Origin: Deltaproteobacteria bacterium GWC2_42_11
GTDB taxonomy: Bacteria > Desulfobacterota > GWC2-55-46 > UBA9637 > GWC2-42-11
Direction: 5' to 3'
Length of the DNA: 51,291 nt
Assembly (NCBI GenBank): GCA_001797495.1
Contig: MGPS01000004.1
Location: forward strand, 1 to 51,291
Shown here: positions 162 through 48,985 of the stretch, piece by piece
How positions within the stretch are numbered: the first letter of the stretch is position 1
Layout of the letters: each line of letters starts with the position of its first letter
Notes under the pieces: generated by a model
Seen by the model: only the letters and a program-made list of their open reading frames with translations
The model's database searches: none
Told to the model about the DNA's origin: nothing
Translations under genes and position numbers: made by a program

Positions 162-1895
162 TCACTTGAGCGCACCCTTTACCTTTTCCAAAAGTTCATC
201 TCTCTTGCACAAAAATGGTGTTGTTTCCTTTCTTAACTTTATCTCAACCATTCCATTTTCAAGATTCTTGCTGCCTATTGTGAGCCTTATCGGCACACCT
301 ATTAAATCAGCATCTTTGAATTTCATGCCAGCCCTTTCATCCCGGTCGTCCATTAAAACACTAATGCCTGCTGTCTCAAGTTCATTATAAATGCCCTCTG
401 CCGCATCCATTACGGTTCTGTCATTCACATTAACAGGCACAATATGGACATGAAAAGGCGCAAGGGGAAAGGGCCAGATTATGCCGTCTTTGTCATGGTT
501 TTGTTCAATTGAGGCGGCGGCAGTCCTTCCGATGCCGATGCCGTAACATCCCATTATAAAAGGTCTCTCCTTGCCGTTCTCATCAAGGAATGCTGCATTC
601 ATTGACTCGCTGTATTTTGCGCCGAGTTTAAATATATGCCCAACTTCAATCCCTCTCATAATCTCAAGTGTGCCATCGCATCTTGGACAATTGTCCCCTG
701 AAACCACATTTCTTAAATCTGCAAATGTCTCTACCTTGAAATCCCTGTCAATATTCACATTTATAAAATGCGCATCCTTCTCATTAGCGCCTGTTACTGC
801 ATTTTTAATACCATGAATGCTGTAGTCTGCAATGATTTTGCATTTCAGTCCTACAGGTCCTGCAAAGCCAGAAGGAGCATTTGTTATATCCCTTACAGTT
901 TTATCATCCGCCAGTTTAACCCAGTCTGCATCAACTGCTCCCTGATTAAAAATTTCAGGGACATGCTTTTTGAGTTTTGTCTCATTTAATTCATAATCAC
1001 CCCTTAATAGAACTGCAAAACTTCCGATACTACTATCATAAATCAAAGTCTTTACAAGGAGTTGCGGATTAACCTTAAGAAATTTACTCACCTCTTCAAC
1101 TGACTTCATATGCGGCGTAGAAACCTTTGTTAGAGGTTTTTCCCCTGACACCTGACACCTGACACCTGACACCTGTCTTCTTGCTTCTGCCTTTTCAATA
1201 TTCGCCGCATAATTGCATTTATTGCAGCTTGCAATAGCATCTTCGCCTGTTTCTGCAAGAACCATAAACTCGTGCGAGAAACTCCCGCCAATCTGCCCTG
1301 TGTCTGCCTCAACTGCTTTGAATTTAAGCCCGCACCTTTCAAATATCCTCGTATATGTCTCATACATATTCTTATATTCTCTTTCAGCGCATTCTTCTGT
1401 TGCGTGAAATGAATATGCATCCTTCATTATAAATTCCCTGCCGCGCATAAGTCCAAAACGCGGTCTAATCTCATCCCTGAATTTTGTCTGGATTTGATAA
1501 AAGTTTAAAGGGAGTTGTCTGTAAGAGCGGACATCTCGCCTCACCATATCTGTTATGACCTCTTCATGCGTTGGACCCAAACAAAAATCCCTGTCATGCC
1601 TGTCCTTTAGTCTTAAAAGTTCCCTGCCGTAAACATCCCACCGTTTACTCTCCTGCCATAGTTCGGATGGAATGACCATTGGCATTAGGACTTCCTGTGC
1701 CCCTGCCCTGTTCATCTCTTCACGCACAATATTTTCCACCTTTTTTATGACCCGCAGTCCAAGAGGCAGAAAATTATAAATCCCGGATGCAACCTTTCTT
1801 ATCATGCCAGCCCTGAGCATCAACTGGTGGCTTATGACCTCTGCATCCTTTGGCGCCTCTTTAATTGTTGGAACAAGCATCTTTGTAAAACGCAT
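162..1895 (-). CDS. proS: Proline--tRNA ligase (with INS editing domain)
   Basis: LGPTHEE, FRDEIRPRFGLMRGREF, GIEVGHIFKLG and MGCYGIG motifs. Start placed at ATG 1895 (MRFTKM) after GGAG. Confidence 0.98.
   Translation of the reverse strand: MRFTKMLVPTIKEAPKDAEVISHQLMLRAGMIRKVASGIYNFLPLGLRVIKKVENIVREEMNRAGAQEVLMPMVIPSELWQESKRWDVYGRELLRLKDRHDRDFCLGPTHEEVITDMVRRDVRSYRQLPLNFYQIQTKFRDEIRPRFGLMRGREFIMKDAYSFHATEECAEREYKNMYETYTRIFERCGLKFKAVEADTGQIGGSFSHEFMVLAETGEDAIASCNKCNYAANIEKAEARRQVSGVRCQVSGEKPLTKVSTPHMKSVEEVSKFLKVNPQLLVKTLIYDSSIGSFAVLLRGDYELNETKLKKHVPEIFNQGAVDADWVKLADDKTVRDITNAPSGFAGPVGLKCKIIADYSIHGIKNAVTGANEKDAHFINVNIDRDFKVETFADLRNVVSGDNCPRCDGTLEIMRGIEVGHIFKLGAKYSESMNAAFLDENGKERPFIMGCYGIGIGRTAAASIEQNHDKDGIIWPFPLAPFHVHIVPVNVNDRTVMDAAEGIYNELETAGISVLMDDRDERAGMKFKDADLIGVPIRLTIGSKNLENGMVEIKLRKETTPFLCKRDELLEKVKGALK
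939..966. repeat. 7-9-7 palindrome inserted in frame in proS
   Basis: TCCCTGA-TTAAAAATT-TCAGGGA-CATGC, encoding HVPEIFNQG. Related copy in leuS at 43709. Confidence 0.7.
1144..1192. repeat. Heptamer tandem array in proS
   Basis: (CCTGACA)x4 perfect at 1144-1171 plus three degenerate units; encodes ARRQVSGVRCQVS. Confidence 0.95.
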
Positions 1896-1905
1896 AGAAT
1901 CTCCT

Positions 1906-47700: not shown

Positions 47701-48985
47701 GTGCGAGGCATTTATTGACAGTCTGAGGAATATCAGAAACAGGGGTCAGGTGTCATGGTCCAGGGGCCAGGAAAAGCAGGCGGTTCACAGGACAGGACTG
47801 AAGAAAAAGATATATCTGCCGAATATGGCAGATGCTGTCCATGCAATGGCAGCGGCATTTCAGTCATGCGGTTTGGACGCAGAGGTTATACCAGAGCCTG
47901 ATGATGAGACCCTTAAATGGGGCAGGAGATACACATCAGGCAGGGAGTGCTACCCATGCATAATCACAACAGGCGATATGGTGAAGATAACAAAGAGGGA
48001 TGGGTTTGATGCAGAAAAATCAGCGTTCTTTATGCCGTCAGGCAATGGTCCTTGCAGGTTCGGGAAATATAACAGGTACCACAGGCTTGTGCTTGATGAA
48101 CTCGGGTATAATAATGTGCCCATATACGCGCCTGATCAAGATGAGGCATTCTATAAGGAATTGGGCATGGTAGGCGGGAACTTCAGCCGCCTTAGCTGGT
48201 GGGGGATTGTGGCAATAGACACTCTGGAGAAAAAACTCCGGGAGATAAGACCATACGAAAAAAATCCCGGTGAAACAGAAGAAGTTTACTGGAAGTGCCT
48301 CCACAGGATATGCGATGCTATAAGGGAGAGGAGGTTCCCTGAAGATGAGTTAAAACAGGCAAAAAGGGAATTAAAAAAAGTAACGGTTTATAAATCTGAG
48401 GGCAAGCCAATTATAGGCATTGTCGGTGAGATATATGTCAGGAGCAACCGTTTCAGCAACAGTAACCTTGTAAAACAGTTGGAAGCCCTTGGTGCAGAGG
48501 TCAGAATGCCGCCGATTGCAGAATGGATCTATTATACAAACCACTGTTCAAAAAAGAGGAATTGGGAAAGGGGACACTATTCAAACTATTTAAGGACCAA
48601 AATGAACGACTTTTTCCAGAGAAAGGACGAACACAGGACACTGAATATACTTGACGGCGATTTAAGGGGAGGGCATGAACCGGAAACACGAGAGATAATG
48701 AACCTCGCTTCCCCTTATATCCATGAGTCCTTTGAAGGAGAGGCAATACTATCAGTTGGCAAGGCAATGGACTACATACGCAAAGGCACACACGGTATTG
48801 TCAATGCAATGCCGTTTACATGTATGCCCGGCACAGTTGTCAATGCAATCTTAAAGAAGGTGAGAGAAGAAAATAACAATATACCGTATATAAATATGGT
48901 CTATGAAGGACTTGAGGATACAAACTCAAAGAGCAGGCTTGAGGCATTTATGTATCAGGCAAAGGAGTATATGGAGAGAAAATGA
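44720..48985 (+). CDS. Fused acyl-CoA dehydratase activase / reductase (PlsA/Ger-like)
   Basis: Two ASKHA ATPase modules (GIDIGS, GG.D.K, CAAGTGSFL, RC.VF), CxxCxxxC linker, two reductase/dehydratase-like domains (CYP, FGCGPD, PCRFG, PFTCMP). Start ATG 44720 after GGAGG. Confidence 0.88.
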   Translation: MSHNSPEVFIGIDIGSVSTNTVVVTLDKEILEEHYTRTKGQPLETARDVLADVLSRYPIEIIRVVAATGTGGKTIAPLIGAYFTNEVIAQSKAVEYFHPDVRTVIEMGGEDAKLILLAPDDTAVRSQESGVRSKKIRVEDFAMNSVCAAGTGSFLDQQATRLGLTIEQFGELALKSKNPPRVAGRCSVFAKSDMIHLQQAATPDYDIVAGLCYAVARNFKSTIGRGKTFLKPVAFQGGVAANPGVRKAFRDVLELNDDEFIIPERFTSMGALGAVFTAMEKTNKMPSHVSGFKGLKELEEYIASGRKKGKGIDPLSRPENHPSQKKDKSDYWGQIILSPLEKVNVYLGIDIGSVSTNVILIDEHSKLIARRYLSTAGRPIEAVRQGLKEIGEECGDKVNVIGAGTTGSGRYLIGDFVGADCIRNEITAQATAAAHIDPTVDTIFEIGGQDSKYIALKDSVVVDFEMNKVCAAGTGSFLEEQAERLGISIENEFSNLALLCTSPASMGERCTVFIESDMVHHQQSGAKKDELVAGLSYSIVHNYLNRVVGDRRIGNNIFFQGGTAANLGVVSAFEIVTGKKITVPENHDVTGAIGVAILVMKEKDRGKPTHFKGFDLSKKKYTLTSFECRDCANICDIKQVTVEGEKPLYYGSRCEKYDINRASAKDNPLPDLFKEREKALFSSYKGKRLPNNATSIGVPRALFIYEMYPFWKAFFNELGYKVILSSPTNREVIKDGVERVVAETCYPIKIAHGHVQDLINKGVKKIFIPSIINLKPAKEGHTFTYHCPYVQTMPYLTASAFDFKALDVEVLKPVIHFNKHQKYMKSEFYELGKMLDRKKGDIDRALDTAWSAQKKFHNSRMRLGEEALKKLKPGEIGLVIVGRPYNTMDNGINLELPQKLRDMNIMAIPFDMLPLDEAIDDAIATDVYWRSGQRIIAAAKVLRDMPNLYAVYITNFGCGPDSFITHFFKDMSNGKPFLQLEIDEHSADAGAVTRCEAFIDSLRNIRNRGQVSWSRGQEKQAVHRTGLKKKIYLPNMADAVHAMAAAFQSCGLDAEVIPEPDDETLKWGRRYTSGRECYPCIITTGDMVKITKRDGFDAEKSAFFMPSGNGPCRFGKYNRYHRLVLDELGYNNVPIYAPDQDEAFYKELGMVGGNFSRLSWWGIVAIDTLEKKLREIRPYEKNPGETEEVYWKCLHRICDAIRERRFPEDELKQAKRELKKVTVYKSEGKPIIGIVGEIYVRSNRFSNSNLVKQLEALGAEVRMPPIAEWIYYTNHCSKKRNWERGHYSNYLRTKMNDFFQRKDEHRTLNILDGDLRGGHEPETREIMNLASPYIHESFEGEAILSVGKAMDYIRKGTHGIVNAMPFTCMPGTVVNAILKKVREENNNIPYINMVYEGLEDTNSKSRLEAFMYQAKEYMERK
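45088..45118. repeat. (AGTCAGG)x4 in frame in the activase
   Basis: Four perfect units plus AGT; encodes VRSQESGVRS. Confidence 0.95.
47740..47774. repeat. Degenerate CAGGNGN heptamer array in an activase linker
   Basis: CAGGGGT CAGGTGT CATGGTC CAGGGGC CAGGAAA; encodes RGQVSWSRGQE. Confidence 0.8.

Follow-up and report, generated by a model that had tools for sequence, protein, structure and literature searches.

Heptamer tracts of uniform size and changing unit at junctional and in-frame sites in Deltaproteobacteria bacterium GWC2_42_11 and its order

Deltaproteobacteria bacterium GWC2_42_11 (G000) is a small groundwater bacterium whose genome carries short tandem arrays at gene junctions and inside housekeeping genes, and this locus raises the question of how such arrays are made. 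The window, meaning the whole stretch of DNA analysed, comprises 51,291 nucleotides of a genome of 1.75 Mb. The original prediction described a system of arrays in the window with a conserved period (7 bp, rarely 8 bp) and a free unit sequence, and both parts have been confirmed. Genome-wide, exact arrays of at least three copies number 66 for period 7 as compared to 11, 3, 2, and 1 for periods 5, 8, 6, and 9, and five order-3 Markov simulations gave 0.0 arrays of period 7. Tandem Repeats Finder (TRF) likewise returns 420 period-7 arrays against about 44 simulated. In the window there are 11 period-7 TRF rows, while the simulated rate of 44 per 1.75 Mb would predict about 1.3 in 51 kb. The 66 exact arrays comprise 43 canonical units. 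The load is approximately one tract per 4 kb, and the typical tract is about 31 nt long, that is, four to five copies of the 7-nt unit. When 277 arrays were placed on gene calls consisting of crude longest ORFs, 102 (about 37%) lay deep within an ORF, 64 at an ORF start, and 111 outside ORFs.

Many tracts lie in frame within essential genes, as had been predicted. The ProS gene (ORF 162-1916) holds at 1144..1175, minus strand, a perfect in-frame array, (GTCAGGT)x4.6 on the coding strand (TRF CCTGACA x4.6, score 64), which is read as QVSGVRCQVSG at residues 247-258, just ahead of the editing domain, whose Pfam tRNA_edit match begins at residue 267. LeuS, also on the minus strand, contains two in-frame tracts. 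The first, at 42529..42612, consists of two inverted period-8 arms (42529-42565 and 42574-42612; TRF) in the linker ahead of the anticodon-binding domain; the second, at 43688..43750, was recognized by eye and is a degenerate GTCAGG-type stretch with its inverted copy (GTCAGGGGC-CT-GCCCCTGAA). The 1426-aa BcrAD/DUF2229 activase carries on the plus strand a perfect in-frame (AGTCAGG)x4.4 array at 45088..45118 (TRF score 62; residues 127-138, AVRSQESGVRS) and a degenerate in-frame tract of GTCAGG type at 47740..47772, seen by eye with no TRF call. In three of four metagenome runs, many contigs match the 45088 array alone and diverge on both sides of it. At 21396..21427, plus strand, (AAATCTC)x4.6 (TRF) overlaps the last codons and the stop of SerS (20135-21424), and a tRNA-Ser follows 9 nt on, at 21436. 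Relatives carry the AAATCTC family at numerous loci, with 41 matches in G004 and 8-14 in the others.

The remaining sites are junctional. Between the dnaK stop (9945) and the dnaJ start (10051), a hairpin at 9936..10044, plus strand, is formed by two inverted heptamer arms, a (CGTGATG)-type arm occupying 9941-9971 and a complementary one occupying 10010-10039 (TRF). The same unit returns as a single arm, (CGTGATG)x3.4, at 34703..34725, plus strand (TRF), after a cytochrome c assembly gene (stop 34697); the commonest unit in the genome is the ACGCATC family, with 16 arrays. Directly after the hsp20 stop (17827), an imperfect (NNNAGAC)x5 array (17829..17900, plus strand; TRF 17829-17863) has a short inverted partner and would form a hairpin. 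The LeuS stop and LptE start are joined by (ACTCAWA)x4.4 at 42027..42057 (TRF score 41 at period 7 and 55 at period 14). A weak site at 6600..6667, in the spacer ahead of an aminotransferase gene (6689-7972), holds (TCTCCAG)x2.1 at 6649-6663 (TRF score 30) and a partial inverted match upstream. A (CAAAAGA)x3.0 array at 27136..27156 (TRF), between a CHAT-domain ORF and its upstream ORF, had not been listed before. Of the 12 sites originally listed, nine have TRF support at period 7 or 8 and 43688 and 47740 are visible by eye only, the former with backing from the comparison of orthologs, whereas 14313 was rejected, being merely A-rich on TRF and sequence inspection. Two other samples supplied near-identical contigs that run through the arrays at 42027 (both samples), 42529-42612, 43688, and 47740 with 0 differences; therefore, the arrays are not assembly artefacts.

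The arrays are restricted to one clade. (GTCAGGN)x3 was found in 13/13 genomes of the order and in 0/83 from sister families, and TRF density per 100 kb is 13-44 in 4/4 genomes of the order as against 0-5 in 7/7 outside it. These genomes share ancestry and are not independent cases, and a single origin of the trait is possible. Within the order, the sites are kept and the units change. The ProS loop holds an array in 11/11 readable genomes, with differing units, and in 0/8 readable genomes outside; the LeuS linker is array-coded in 6/6, again with differing units; and the dnaK-dnaJ spacers, as judged by eye, have periodic inverted arms in 10/10, with lineage-specific, co-varying units. The 45088 site of the activase is empty in G003 and G007, G000 has 10 aa (30 nt) and G001 9 aa (27 nt) more, and G002 holds a different array there. 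At the 43688 tract of LeuS, the alignment gives G000 10 aa (30 nt) more than five relatives, which keep a two-unit tract, KSQESEV. The net in-frame gains in these two essential genes are thus 27-30 nt, about a whole tract and multiples of 3. Conversely, relatives lacking arrays have a ProS loop and a LeuS linker of similar length, the linker having about the same length in 12 LeuS from other phyla, so that these two sites do not demonstrate net insertion.

G003 and G008, which are about 95% identical, were compared over about 37 kb of alignment with four TRF arrays. Length is kept in three of the four, including an identical 9.3-unit array. In the GMP synthase gene, an in-frame array has been exchanged for one with an unrelated unit (ATCACGC versus AAATCTC) with a length change of only 6 nt. 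A spacer hairpin of G008 differs from that of G003 in being replaced by one that resembles, loop included, an element 300 nt away, and another 20-nt segment has been exchanged for 26 heptamer-like bases. For the replaced GMP synthase array, the search for a donor sharing its junctions found none, other loci matching the repeat alone. The replaced segments could be short patches imported from other strains rather than products of rewriting in place.

Unrelated tracts at the same spots in close relatives suggest, on sequence comparison, a process that writes whole tracts. Different units at orthologous sites, together with unrelated replacements and three retained lengths, count against slippage by single units and favor the writing of whole tracts. 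Templated rewriting of entire heptamer tracts is accordingly our tentative best explanation, to which we give a little less than an even chance. The comparisons themselves show the period-7 excess, a common tract size, restriction to one clade, constant sites with varying units, exchange of entire tracts between close relatives, and pairing of inverted arms; that tracts originate in a single step, take other tracts as template, or serve any function is inferred. The tract would be made whole in a single event of templated synthesis that reiterates a 7-nt unit over about 30 nt, and the event would sometimes continue onto the opposite strand to leave an inverted arm, like a template or strand switch in replication or repair. 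An adjacent inverted arm accompanies about 30% of noncoding arrays; 47/277 arrays have inverted partners as against 5 in the control, and the reverse-complement 6-mer of the unit occurs in the flanks of 50/198 arrays (24.5 +/- 4.3 expected), while direct unit copies are not enriched in the same flanks. The unit would be drawn from a limited repertoire of tracts already in the genome. The units are nonrandom and shared, pairs within one mismatch having a frequency of 0.047-0.105 as compared to 0.020 for random heptamers. New tracts would land mainly on existing tracts or in permissive loops and spacers, and old tracts would thereby be overwritten. Selection would then retain tracts with a net length divisible by 3 and a unit free of stops on the coding strand; whichever frame is read, a heptamer tract encodes one and the same repeat of 7 residues. 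Stable hairpins in operon spacers may be kept or tolerated by selection.

The first alternative is that these are ordinary simple sequence repeats (SSRs), in which polymerase slippage favors 7-nt units, contraction and expansion homogenize them, and selection filters frame and stops. An excess of heptanucleotide SSRs in bacteria is documented in the relevant part of Rehm et al. 2015 (PMC4692102), which cites Mrazek, Guo & Shah 2007, and slippage, linked to the stretch of DNA that occupies the active site of the polymerase, is the only hypothesis offered there. At a second ProS site, two homologues differ by exactly 7 aa (three units), as slippage under a frame filter would produce, and homogeneous, lineage-specific units resemble concerted evolution. 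Variants within arrays are clustered by column (798 versus 658 +/- 16), a pattern that fits duplication of mutated units and counts against whole-tract writing, since mere decay of a perfect tract would not be expected to give it. However, adjacent units resemble each other no more closely than remote ones do, the mismatch at lags 7, 14, and 21 being 0.149, 0.139, and 0.137, so that the units within an array are equidistant. Arrays measure about 30-34 nt (four to five units; median 30-31 nt), and those deep in ORFs share their mode with those of noncoding DNA; the four-unit class takes 60/102 deep-ORF, 38/64 ORF-start, and 54/111 non-ORF arrays. The histogram of exact lengths shows a plateau at 21-29 nt, a bump at 30-31, three to four arrays each at 32-34, and a single longer one (39 nt). 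A mode of 4.3-4.9 copies is also seen in 21/80 loci from other phyla. Slippage does not readily explain a cap near 34 nt that is identical in coding and noncoding DNA, and each single-unit step in an essential gene would be a frameshift. Moreover, unit number was unchanged in the three retained arrays of the close pair, no unit-number change was seen among the contigs of other samples, replaced units are unrelated, and no excess appears in the sister families, where the core replication genes looked for are the same. Slippage is therefore considered unlikely, in line with the original prediction, which had set ordinary slippage aside; equal lag mismatches, the length bump and cutoff, the tract-sized gains, and the unrelated replacements bear this out.

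Miniature mobile elements like REP/REPINs or MITEs, which a transposase such as Y1 (RAYT/IS200-like) would mobilize in trans and which would insert at preferred sites, are a somewhat less probable source. G000 has about 10-14 dispersed copies of a hairpin family whose members combine (AATTGNA)n arms with a conserved loop and a tail forming a GC hairpin, there are copies in the G003 and G001 samples too, and the G008 spacer hairpin is a copy-like relative of its nearby element. Unit families also show genome-specific bursts (GTCAGGN has 33 matches in G001 and 1 in G002). Like REP/REPIN doublets, the (AATTGNA)n family is short, extragenic, and dispersed. In REPs, as described in the part of Bertels & Rainey 2011 (PMC3116915) consulted, each family has a single conserved sequence, and REPs flank the cognate RAYT; here, by contrast, units come in dozens, and the majority of arrays are direct repeats that lack a hairpin and shared flanks, many of them within genes. 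Y1 genes are present in 12/12 of the order's other genomes and are often numerous there, yet Y1 has no match in G000, rated 100% complete by marker genes, and is present in 11/18 genomes outside the order, three of which (G013, G016, and G024) combine strong Y1 matches with background array density. The flanks of 10 Y1 loci contain other repeats and no heptamer hairpins. Across the compared genomes, no gene or enzyme was found to track the trait: the presence of RT, Y1 transposase, DinB, MutS, and ExoVII does not follow it, and PrimPol, Ku, and PolB were looked for as candidates and not found. The earlier statement that no candidate enzyme is evident in the window agrees with the present search.

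A third possibility is that the tracts are selected binding arrays for a nucleic-acid-binding protein that reads in a 7-nt register (cold-shock, S1, or CsrA-like), an idea put forward for the TAACTGA repeats, or hairpins that stabilize mRNA at junctions. Indeed, many lie at operon stop/start junctions (dnaK-dnaJ, after hsp20, upstream of ftsZ), and in the dnaK-dnaJ spacer the position is kept across the order while the arms co-vary. An adjacent inverted arm accompanies about 30% of noncoding arrays; 47/277 arrays have inverted partners as against 5 in the control, and the reverse-complement 6-mer of the unit occurs in the flanks of 50/198 arrays (24.5 +/- 4.3 expected), while direct unit copies are not enriched in the same flanks. 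Folding is far better than that of shuffles in three of six stretches tested: the dnaK-dnaJ spacer, which would be very stable (MFE -49.2 kcal/mol, z -7.6; 0/200 shuffles as good), 17825-17905 (z -4.0), and the LeuS linker at 42525-42615 (z -4.1). The stretches 6595-6670 (z -1.6) and 43680-43760 (z -1.8) are not significant, and 34698-34750 has no fold structure (z 0.2). A translational role has been proposed for the repeats of Beggiatoaceae in the part of MacGregor 2015 (PMC4679880) that deals with them. Nevertheless, 43 unit types are too diverse for one sequence-specific binder, more than a third of the arrays are deep inside ORFs, and unrelated units swap at one site; besides, function would explain the retention of tracts, not the origin of the period or of the fixed size. 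This reading is quite improbable.

A reverse transcriptase or diversity-generating writer, or cassette scars between inverted arms as the original prediction had proposed, would fit the presence of such arms and the rewriting of sites between relatives, but this reading is largely refuted and has very little probability left, because RT has no match in G000 or G001 (5/12 other genomes of the order have it, and 6/18 outside), substitutions between variants are not adenine-specific, and 7/11 stringent arm pairs are just 0-24 nt apart, the other four, spaced by 397-2522 nt, looking like separate arrays of one unit family.

Small repeats of other kinds offer partial parallels. The RPE insertions of Rickettsia are in-frame, 100-150 nt long, and grouped in families of conserved sequence, and the SDRs of Nostoc punctiforme, reportedly described by Elhai et al. 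in 2008, are said to be families of conserved sequence of 21-27 nt. The tracts described here resemble both in being very small, possibly mobile with no evident enzyme, and tolerated as in-frame loop insertions; they differ in that period and tract length are conserved, not sequence. The STRR of heterocystous cyanobacteria are short tandem heptamers dispersed over the genome, as are the present ones, whereas the present host is noncyanobacterial (sigma-54 activator, LptE, BcrAD-type activase; nearest homologues in Deltaproteobacteria/Thermodesulfobacteriota MAGs). In Calothrix PCC 7601, three tandem heptanucleotides are mentioned in the section of Rehm 2015 (PMC4692102) on such repeats. The cyanobacterial precedent originally invoked is apt, but the same section indicates that the excess has been documented more widely in bacteria. 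The present tracts are of the same kind as those of cyanobacteria, Xanthomonas, and Beggiatoaceae; what goes beyond the known heptamer excess is in-frame rewriting at fixed sites, tract-sized and clade-bound, of which no report was found in the literature searched. As in the SSRs of Mrazek 2007, to the extent that they are summarized in PMC4692102, period 7 is prominent among long units and the unit varies by taxon; a fixed size, equidistant units, restriction to one clade within a class, a heavy load read in frame in housekeeping genes, and the exchange of whole tracts at fixed sites set the present tracts apart. Another likeness is to the GGGAATC arrays of Xanthomonas and the GGGGA(C/T)T arrays of Nostoc PCC 7120, which, in the same part of that source, are heptamer tandems with a four-unit mode and some inverted pairs, mostly lying between the same genes in related species and varying extensively in length and sequence. 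Those arrays have one G-rich unit type per genus, are mainly intergenic, and are discussed as G-quadruplex formers, unlike the dozens of mostly not G-rich units found here, often deep in ORFs. TAACTGA direct repeats (2-6 copies per set) of marine Beggiatoaceae, some cyanobacteria, and Bacteroidetes are likewise mostly junctional and patchy in phylogeny, with no mechanism and a few sets within ORFs, as far as the part of MacGregor 2015 (PMC4679880) that describes them goes. Their single unit has stops in all frames in one orientation, and the ORF-internal sets (24) are rare and peripheral, whereas in the present genomes many units are read through in frame inside essential enzymes.

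Strain fingerprinting makes use of heptamer repeats, which have been on record since about 1990; to our knowledge, their origin has never been explained. The phenomenon met here is of this known but unexplained type, and what is new is the behaviour documented, which makes the question of origin testable. The arrays of the window's own genome (G000) consist of head-to-tail 7-nt units over-represented against other periods, as in the definition of heptanucleotide SSRs. Exact arrays of at least three copies number 66 at period 7, against 2 at period 6, 3 at period 8, 11 at period 5 and 1 at period 9, so that the excess over other periods, the lack of which had been named as one refutation of the original observation, is confirmed. 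Five order-3 Markov simulations gave 0.0 such period-7 arrays. TRF returned 420 period-7 arrays genome-wide against 44 simulated, with lesser excesses at period 8 (125 against 54.5) and period 9 (151 against 54.5). Both comparisons with simulation (66 against 0.0, 420 against 44) therefore clearly contradict an absence of period-7 enrichment. The free unit sequence also holds, since 43 canonical units are found among the 66 exact arrays. Twelve array sites had been listed in the window: nine carry period-7/8 TRF arrays, those at 43688 and 47740 are degenerate and visible by eye only, and the one at 14313 is simply A-rich. Near-identical contigs from two other samples span four window arrays with 0 differences. 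The array observation is real.

Genes were called crudely as longest ORFs (coding fraction 0.887), and on these calls ORFs contain 75 of the 92 TRF arrays in G000 with a score of at least 50, roughly matching the coding share. At a score of at least 35 (n = 277), 102 arrays lie deep in ORFs, 64 within 150 nt of an ORF start, which leaves their assignment ambiguous, and 111 outside ORFs; the three classes are alike in median length (30-31 nt) and in mode (four units). The length histogram of exact arrays has a plateau at 21-29 nt, a bump at 30-31 nt, three to four arrays each at 32-34 nt and one longer array (39 nt), and a tally of it gave no preference of length modulo 3. The commonest units are ACGCATC (16 arrays), AAAACTC (9) and AAATTGT (7). 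ORF-internal tracts translate in silico to peptides with a 7-residue period, among them SQESGVR, KTQNSKL and THHASRI, and units with a stop on the complement occur in a single orientation in ORFs (AGGAGTC, for example, in 5/5 cases).

The host genome has 1.75 Mb in 73 contigs, of which the window is contig C4, with 42% G+C, and is rated 100% complete by marker genes. A cyanobacterial host is ruled out by gene content (sigma-54 activator, LptE, BamE, BcrAD-type activase) and by the Deltaproteobacteria-labelled relatives. The closest ProS homologues (84-65% identity) come from MAGs labelled Deltaproteobacteria or Thermodesulfobacteriota, and the closest LeuS loci (at most 60% identity) from MAGs labelled Nitrospirae and others. 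The metagenome runs containing the window are from groundwater, soil and, in a small share, drinking water.

The arrays mark one order, a clade represented by 13 genomes that include G000. Per 100 kb, TRF finds 24 period-7 arrays in G000 and 44, 23 and 13 in its relatives G001, G002 and G003, against 0-5 in all 7 genomes sampled outside the order from other families of that class. The (GTCAGGN)x3 pattern occurs in 13/13 genomes of the order and in 0/83 sister genomes from 12 other families, which provides a natural contrast; the reversed-pattern control gave 0-2 matches. Beyond the class recurrence is patchy, with period-7 arrays in 21/80 LeuS loci of diverse phyla, some of them in frame in LeuS, and a copy mode of 4.3-4.9. 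Independent array-rich lineages include the genomes behind L011, L018, L021, L025 and L051. Unit sharing across the order is above chance (0.047-0.105 against 0.020). Family abundance varies between genomes: GTCAGGN has 33 matches in G001 against 1 in G002, and AAATCTC has 41 in G004 against 8-14 elsewhere. Metagenomes were compared as assembled contigs of four runs; no array indels are present in these contigs, in which rare variants are lost and which are interrupted at the perfect array at 45088. In runs X4, X6 and X12, 5-19 different contigs per run match the (AGTCAGG)n array at 45088-45123 alone, both flanks diverging, and the array is thus present there in many other contexts or organisms. 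One high-depth contig joint in run X10 skips 45046-45160 and is uninterpretable.

Within the order the arrays occupy fixed sites. In ProS, the array at 1144 encodes amino acids 247-258, just before the editing domain (Pfam tRNA_edit match from amino acid 267). An array of about four units fills this loop in 11/11 readable genomes of the order, whereas the loop is ordinary and of similar length in 8/8 readable genomes outside it. This comparison used a motif filter and left out five unreadable genomes outside the order (G013, G014, G017, G019, G029) and one partial locus (L169, from G012); no ProS match was found in G008. The units vary and are mostly homogeneous within an array (GTCAGGT, GTCAGGA, GTCAGGG, GGCAAGG, CAAGTCA, GGCGAGG). 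The predicted ProS structure, from a 16-row alignment, has a mean pLDDT of 47.3 and is unusable. Three in-frame ProS-loop arrays are interrupted by small palindromes. Palindromes such as GCCTGC-CCCC-GCAGGC and TCCGCC-TCA-GGCGGA lie inside in-frame arrays at loci L148 (the ProS loop of G007), L144 (G010) and L167 (G004), and the peptides that they give, GVRGLPPQALNGGQ among them, recur in several genomes, in both ProS and LeuS (columns 267-300 and 401-426 of alignment A1).

The LeuS linker is array-coded in 6/6 genomes of the order, and at the LeuS site at 43688 exactly 30 nt, including an inverted unit copy, have been gained in G000. The LeuS match of G007 (L219) contains one in-frame TGA, which may reflect a sequencing error, a frameshift or recoding. 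Empty and filled activase sites were compared, as proposed earlier: the site is empty in G003 and G007, a GTCAGG array adds 30 nt in G000 and another adds 27 nt in G001, and G002 has a different array. In the window at 45070-45095, the hexamer CCTGAC (conserved Pro-Asp codons), 9 nt 5′ of the activase array, is the exact reverse complement of the core GTCAGG, which may be chance or a strand-switch seed.

Tract replacement is seen between two close relatives, G003 and G008, which share about 95% identity over about 37 kb aligned (a third block, L208, was excluded as misaligned beyond position 2130). Just before the VWMSHGD motif of GMP synthase, an in-frame (ATCACGC)x4.7 array in one corresponds to (AAATCTC)x~4.7 in the other, with a 6-nt length difference and an identical downstream flank. 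No donor with junctions matching the replaced array was found, other loci matching the repeat alone. A spacer hairpin has likewise been swapped, from an AGAGTCA type to a CAAGTCA type whose likeness to an element 300 nt away extends to the loop, and a further 20-nt segment is exchanged for 26 heptamer-like bases. Among the four TRF arrays compared, length is kept in three, with no change of unit number in these 3 retained arrays, and a 9.3-unit array is identical.

The reading that we favour, at a little short of an even chance, is that a whole tract would be synthesized in a single event, templated by a reiterated unit probably drawn from existing tracts, and would then be subject to selection on frame and stop codons. 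It is favoured because of six constraints: a sequence-free 7-nt period; a tract size of about 31 nt, alike across phyla and in coding and non-coding sequence; gains of 27-30 nt that stay in frame in essential genes, in which a step of one unit would be a frameshift; adjacent inverted arms; fixed sites, which bear unrelated units in close relatives; and confinement to one order. A further proposal is more tentative, namely that an active, RT-independent process in this order of uncultured groundwater bacteria might reiterate a 7-nt unit into tracts of about 30 nt, written in either orientation, and overwrite older tracts at fixed hot spots that include the ProS, LeuS and GMP synthase loops.

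Unit-by-unit slippage with concerted evolution is an unlikely source, to which two observations nevertheless lend some weight. Two ProS homologues differ in length by three units, and variants within arrays are concentrated by column (798 against 658 ± 16, a value reached by 0/1000 shuffles). The frame constraint in essential genes speaks for whole-tract synthesis, and the constant unit number of the three retained arrays in the close pair may do so too. Unit mismatch within arrays is flat with distance (0.149, 0.139 and 0.137 at lags 7, 14 and 21), and a 14-nt super-period is ruled out, as only 4/163 imperfect arrays are perfect at lag 14. If slippage alone were at work, these data would still bound any slippage model by a size cap and the lack of a neighbour effect.

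Inverted partners lie within 120 nt of 47/277 arrays, against 5 with shuffled units, and are mainly non-coding (33/111 non-ORF arrays against 6/102 deep-ORF arrays). All-against-all BLAST of flanks yielded one true dispersed family, the remaining matches being mostly neighbouring arrays. It is an AT-rich hairpin of about 100 nt with (AATTGNA)n arms, a conserved loop and a small GC hairpin (CTCGC-GAA-GCGAG), located just 5′ of start codons, common to the order and present in about 10-14 copies per genome. Copies in G000 lie at 14200-14330 of contig C57, 2250-2360 of C67, 1045-1150 of C18, 41170-41280 of C73, 45460-45570 and 45960-46080 of C70, and 30820-30900 of C6, upstream of ftsZ; one of G003 is at 8814-8930 of locus L124. 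Contig ends of G008 coincide with these elements.

A REPIN-like mobile system as the source of this hairpin subset is a weaker possibility than slippage. Extragenic palindromic doublets with a family-wide sequence, as described for REP/REPIN in the passages of PMC3116915 concerned, are matched by the (AATTGNA)n family. The same passages have a cognate Y1 (RAYT) gene flanked by repeats, whereas PF01797 (Y1 transposase) has 0 matches in G000. Most arrays of G000 differ from those elements, with 43 unit types, no shared flanks and a position deep in ORFs in 102/277 cases. Y1 genes in 10 loci of relatives are without flanking heptamer hairpins, and the Y1 transposase is rejected as writer because its distribution does not track the arrays. 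In G005 and G011, multi-copy Y1 genes have tandem or near-tandem repeats of their own on their flanks, containing GGGGACGGTTCT (L183:5678-5751, L186:5882-5925); these repeats are unrelated to the heptamer arrays and may be the true REP partners of those genes.

Selection for binding or hairpin function is the least probable of these rivals as an origin, and may explain retention instead. The dnaK-dnaJ spacer hairpin (9936-10044) folds at -49.2 kcal/mol (z -7.6); among the other window stretches folded, two hairpins have z about -4 and three stretches are non-significant. By eye, a heptamer-arm hairpin is present in this spacer in 10/10 genomes of the order, with lineage-specific, co-varying units, and only 1/8 outside it (G028) looks similar. 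Writing by an RT and scars of cassettes are both all but excluded. A diversity-generating retroelement calls for an RT with a template/variable repeat pair; PF00078 has no match in G000 or G001, and RT distribution does not track the arrays. Arms lie 0-24 nt apart in 7/11 stringent pairs, which leaves nothing gene-sized between them.

No candidate enzyme had been evident in the window, and among the genes searched for here Y1 transposase, RT, MutS, ExoVII and DinB do not track the trait. Mismatch-repair loss is rejected, MutS being found in G000 and in 29/31 genomes, and so is ExoVII loss, with ExoVII in 13/13 genomes of the order. DinB was not found in G001, G003 and G008 and is present in most genomes outside the order; G000 gave no match for PrimPol, Ku or family B polymerase.

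Among known systems, heptameric repeats are described as over-represented in many bacteria (Rehm et al. 2015, PMC4692102, citing Mrazek 2007). In the passages of that paper on Xanthomonas, arrays are mostly of four units, with some inverted pairs, their positions are kept between species while sequences vary, and slippage is the sole origin idea mentioned. TAACTGA sets have 2-6 copies and are mostly intergenic, with 24 sets touching the ORF periphery, and no mechanism is offered in the corresponding passages (MacGregor 2015, PMC4679880). Cyanobacterial STRR, unit consensus aside, are set apart by their heterocystous-cyanobacterium host. Judged by sequence, some G000 units (AAGGGGC, AGGGGTC, AAGGGTC) would qualify for the G-quadruplex type of Xanthomonas and Nostoc (a run of at least three G, at least four units), and the commonest do not. 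In the literature covered, with subscription papers and supplementary files or tables outside its scope, no report was found of in-frame heptamer tracts at fixed housekeeping-gene sites swapped between relatives.

Given the clade contrast, the small genomes, the fixed orthologous sites and the tracts swapped in close pairs, comparative genomics and biochemistry can put the origin question directly to the test. Should tracts be written whole, a mutational mechanism would be repeatedly reshaping operon spacers and the surface loops of essential proteins, with bearing on protein-linker evolution, within-operon expression control and, because contigs break at heptamer elements, metagenome assembly. 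An RT-independent writer, if real, would add a class of its own to templated mutagenesis or to ultra-small mobile DNA, and could be the long-sought source of the heptamer repeats of cyanobacteria, Xanthomonas and Beggiatoaceae.

Some further features of the window may be recorded. Positions 8050-19459 hold, on one strand, a heat-shock/proteostasis cluster (dnaK, dnaJ, a ClpA/ClpC-like ATPase, a tandem universal stress protein, clpB, hsp20 and an HtrA-type protease) with heptamer elements at several of its junctions. Rfam 15 at gathering score matched no family in the window except three tRNAs. Across 1-51291, sign switches of GC skew and AT skew track gene orientation, and coding strands are thus purine-rich (G>C, A>T). 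At 23277-30355, a 967-aa CHAT-domain protein with two upstream ORFs lacking a Pfam match adjoins a divergent 848-aa TPR protein, an arrangement reminiscent of caspase-like modules for signalling or defence.
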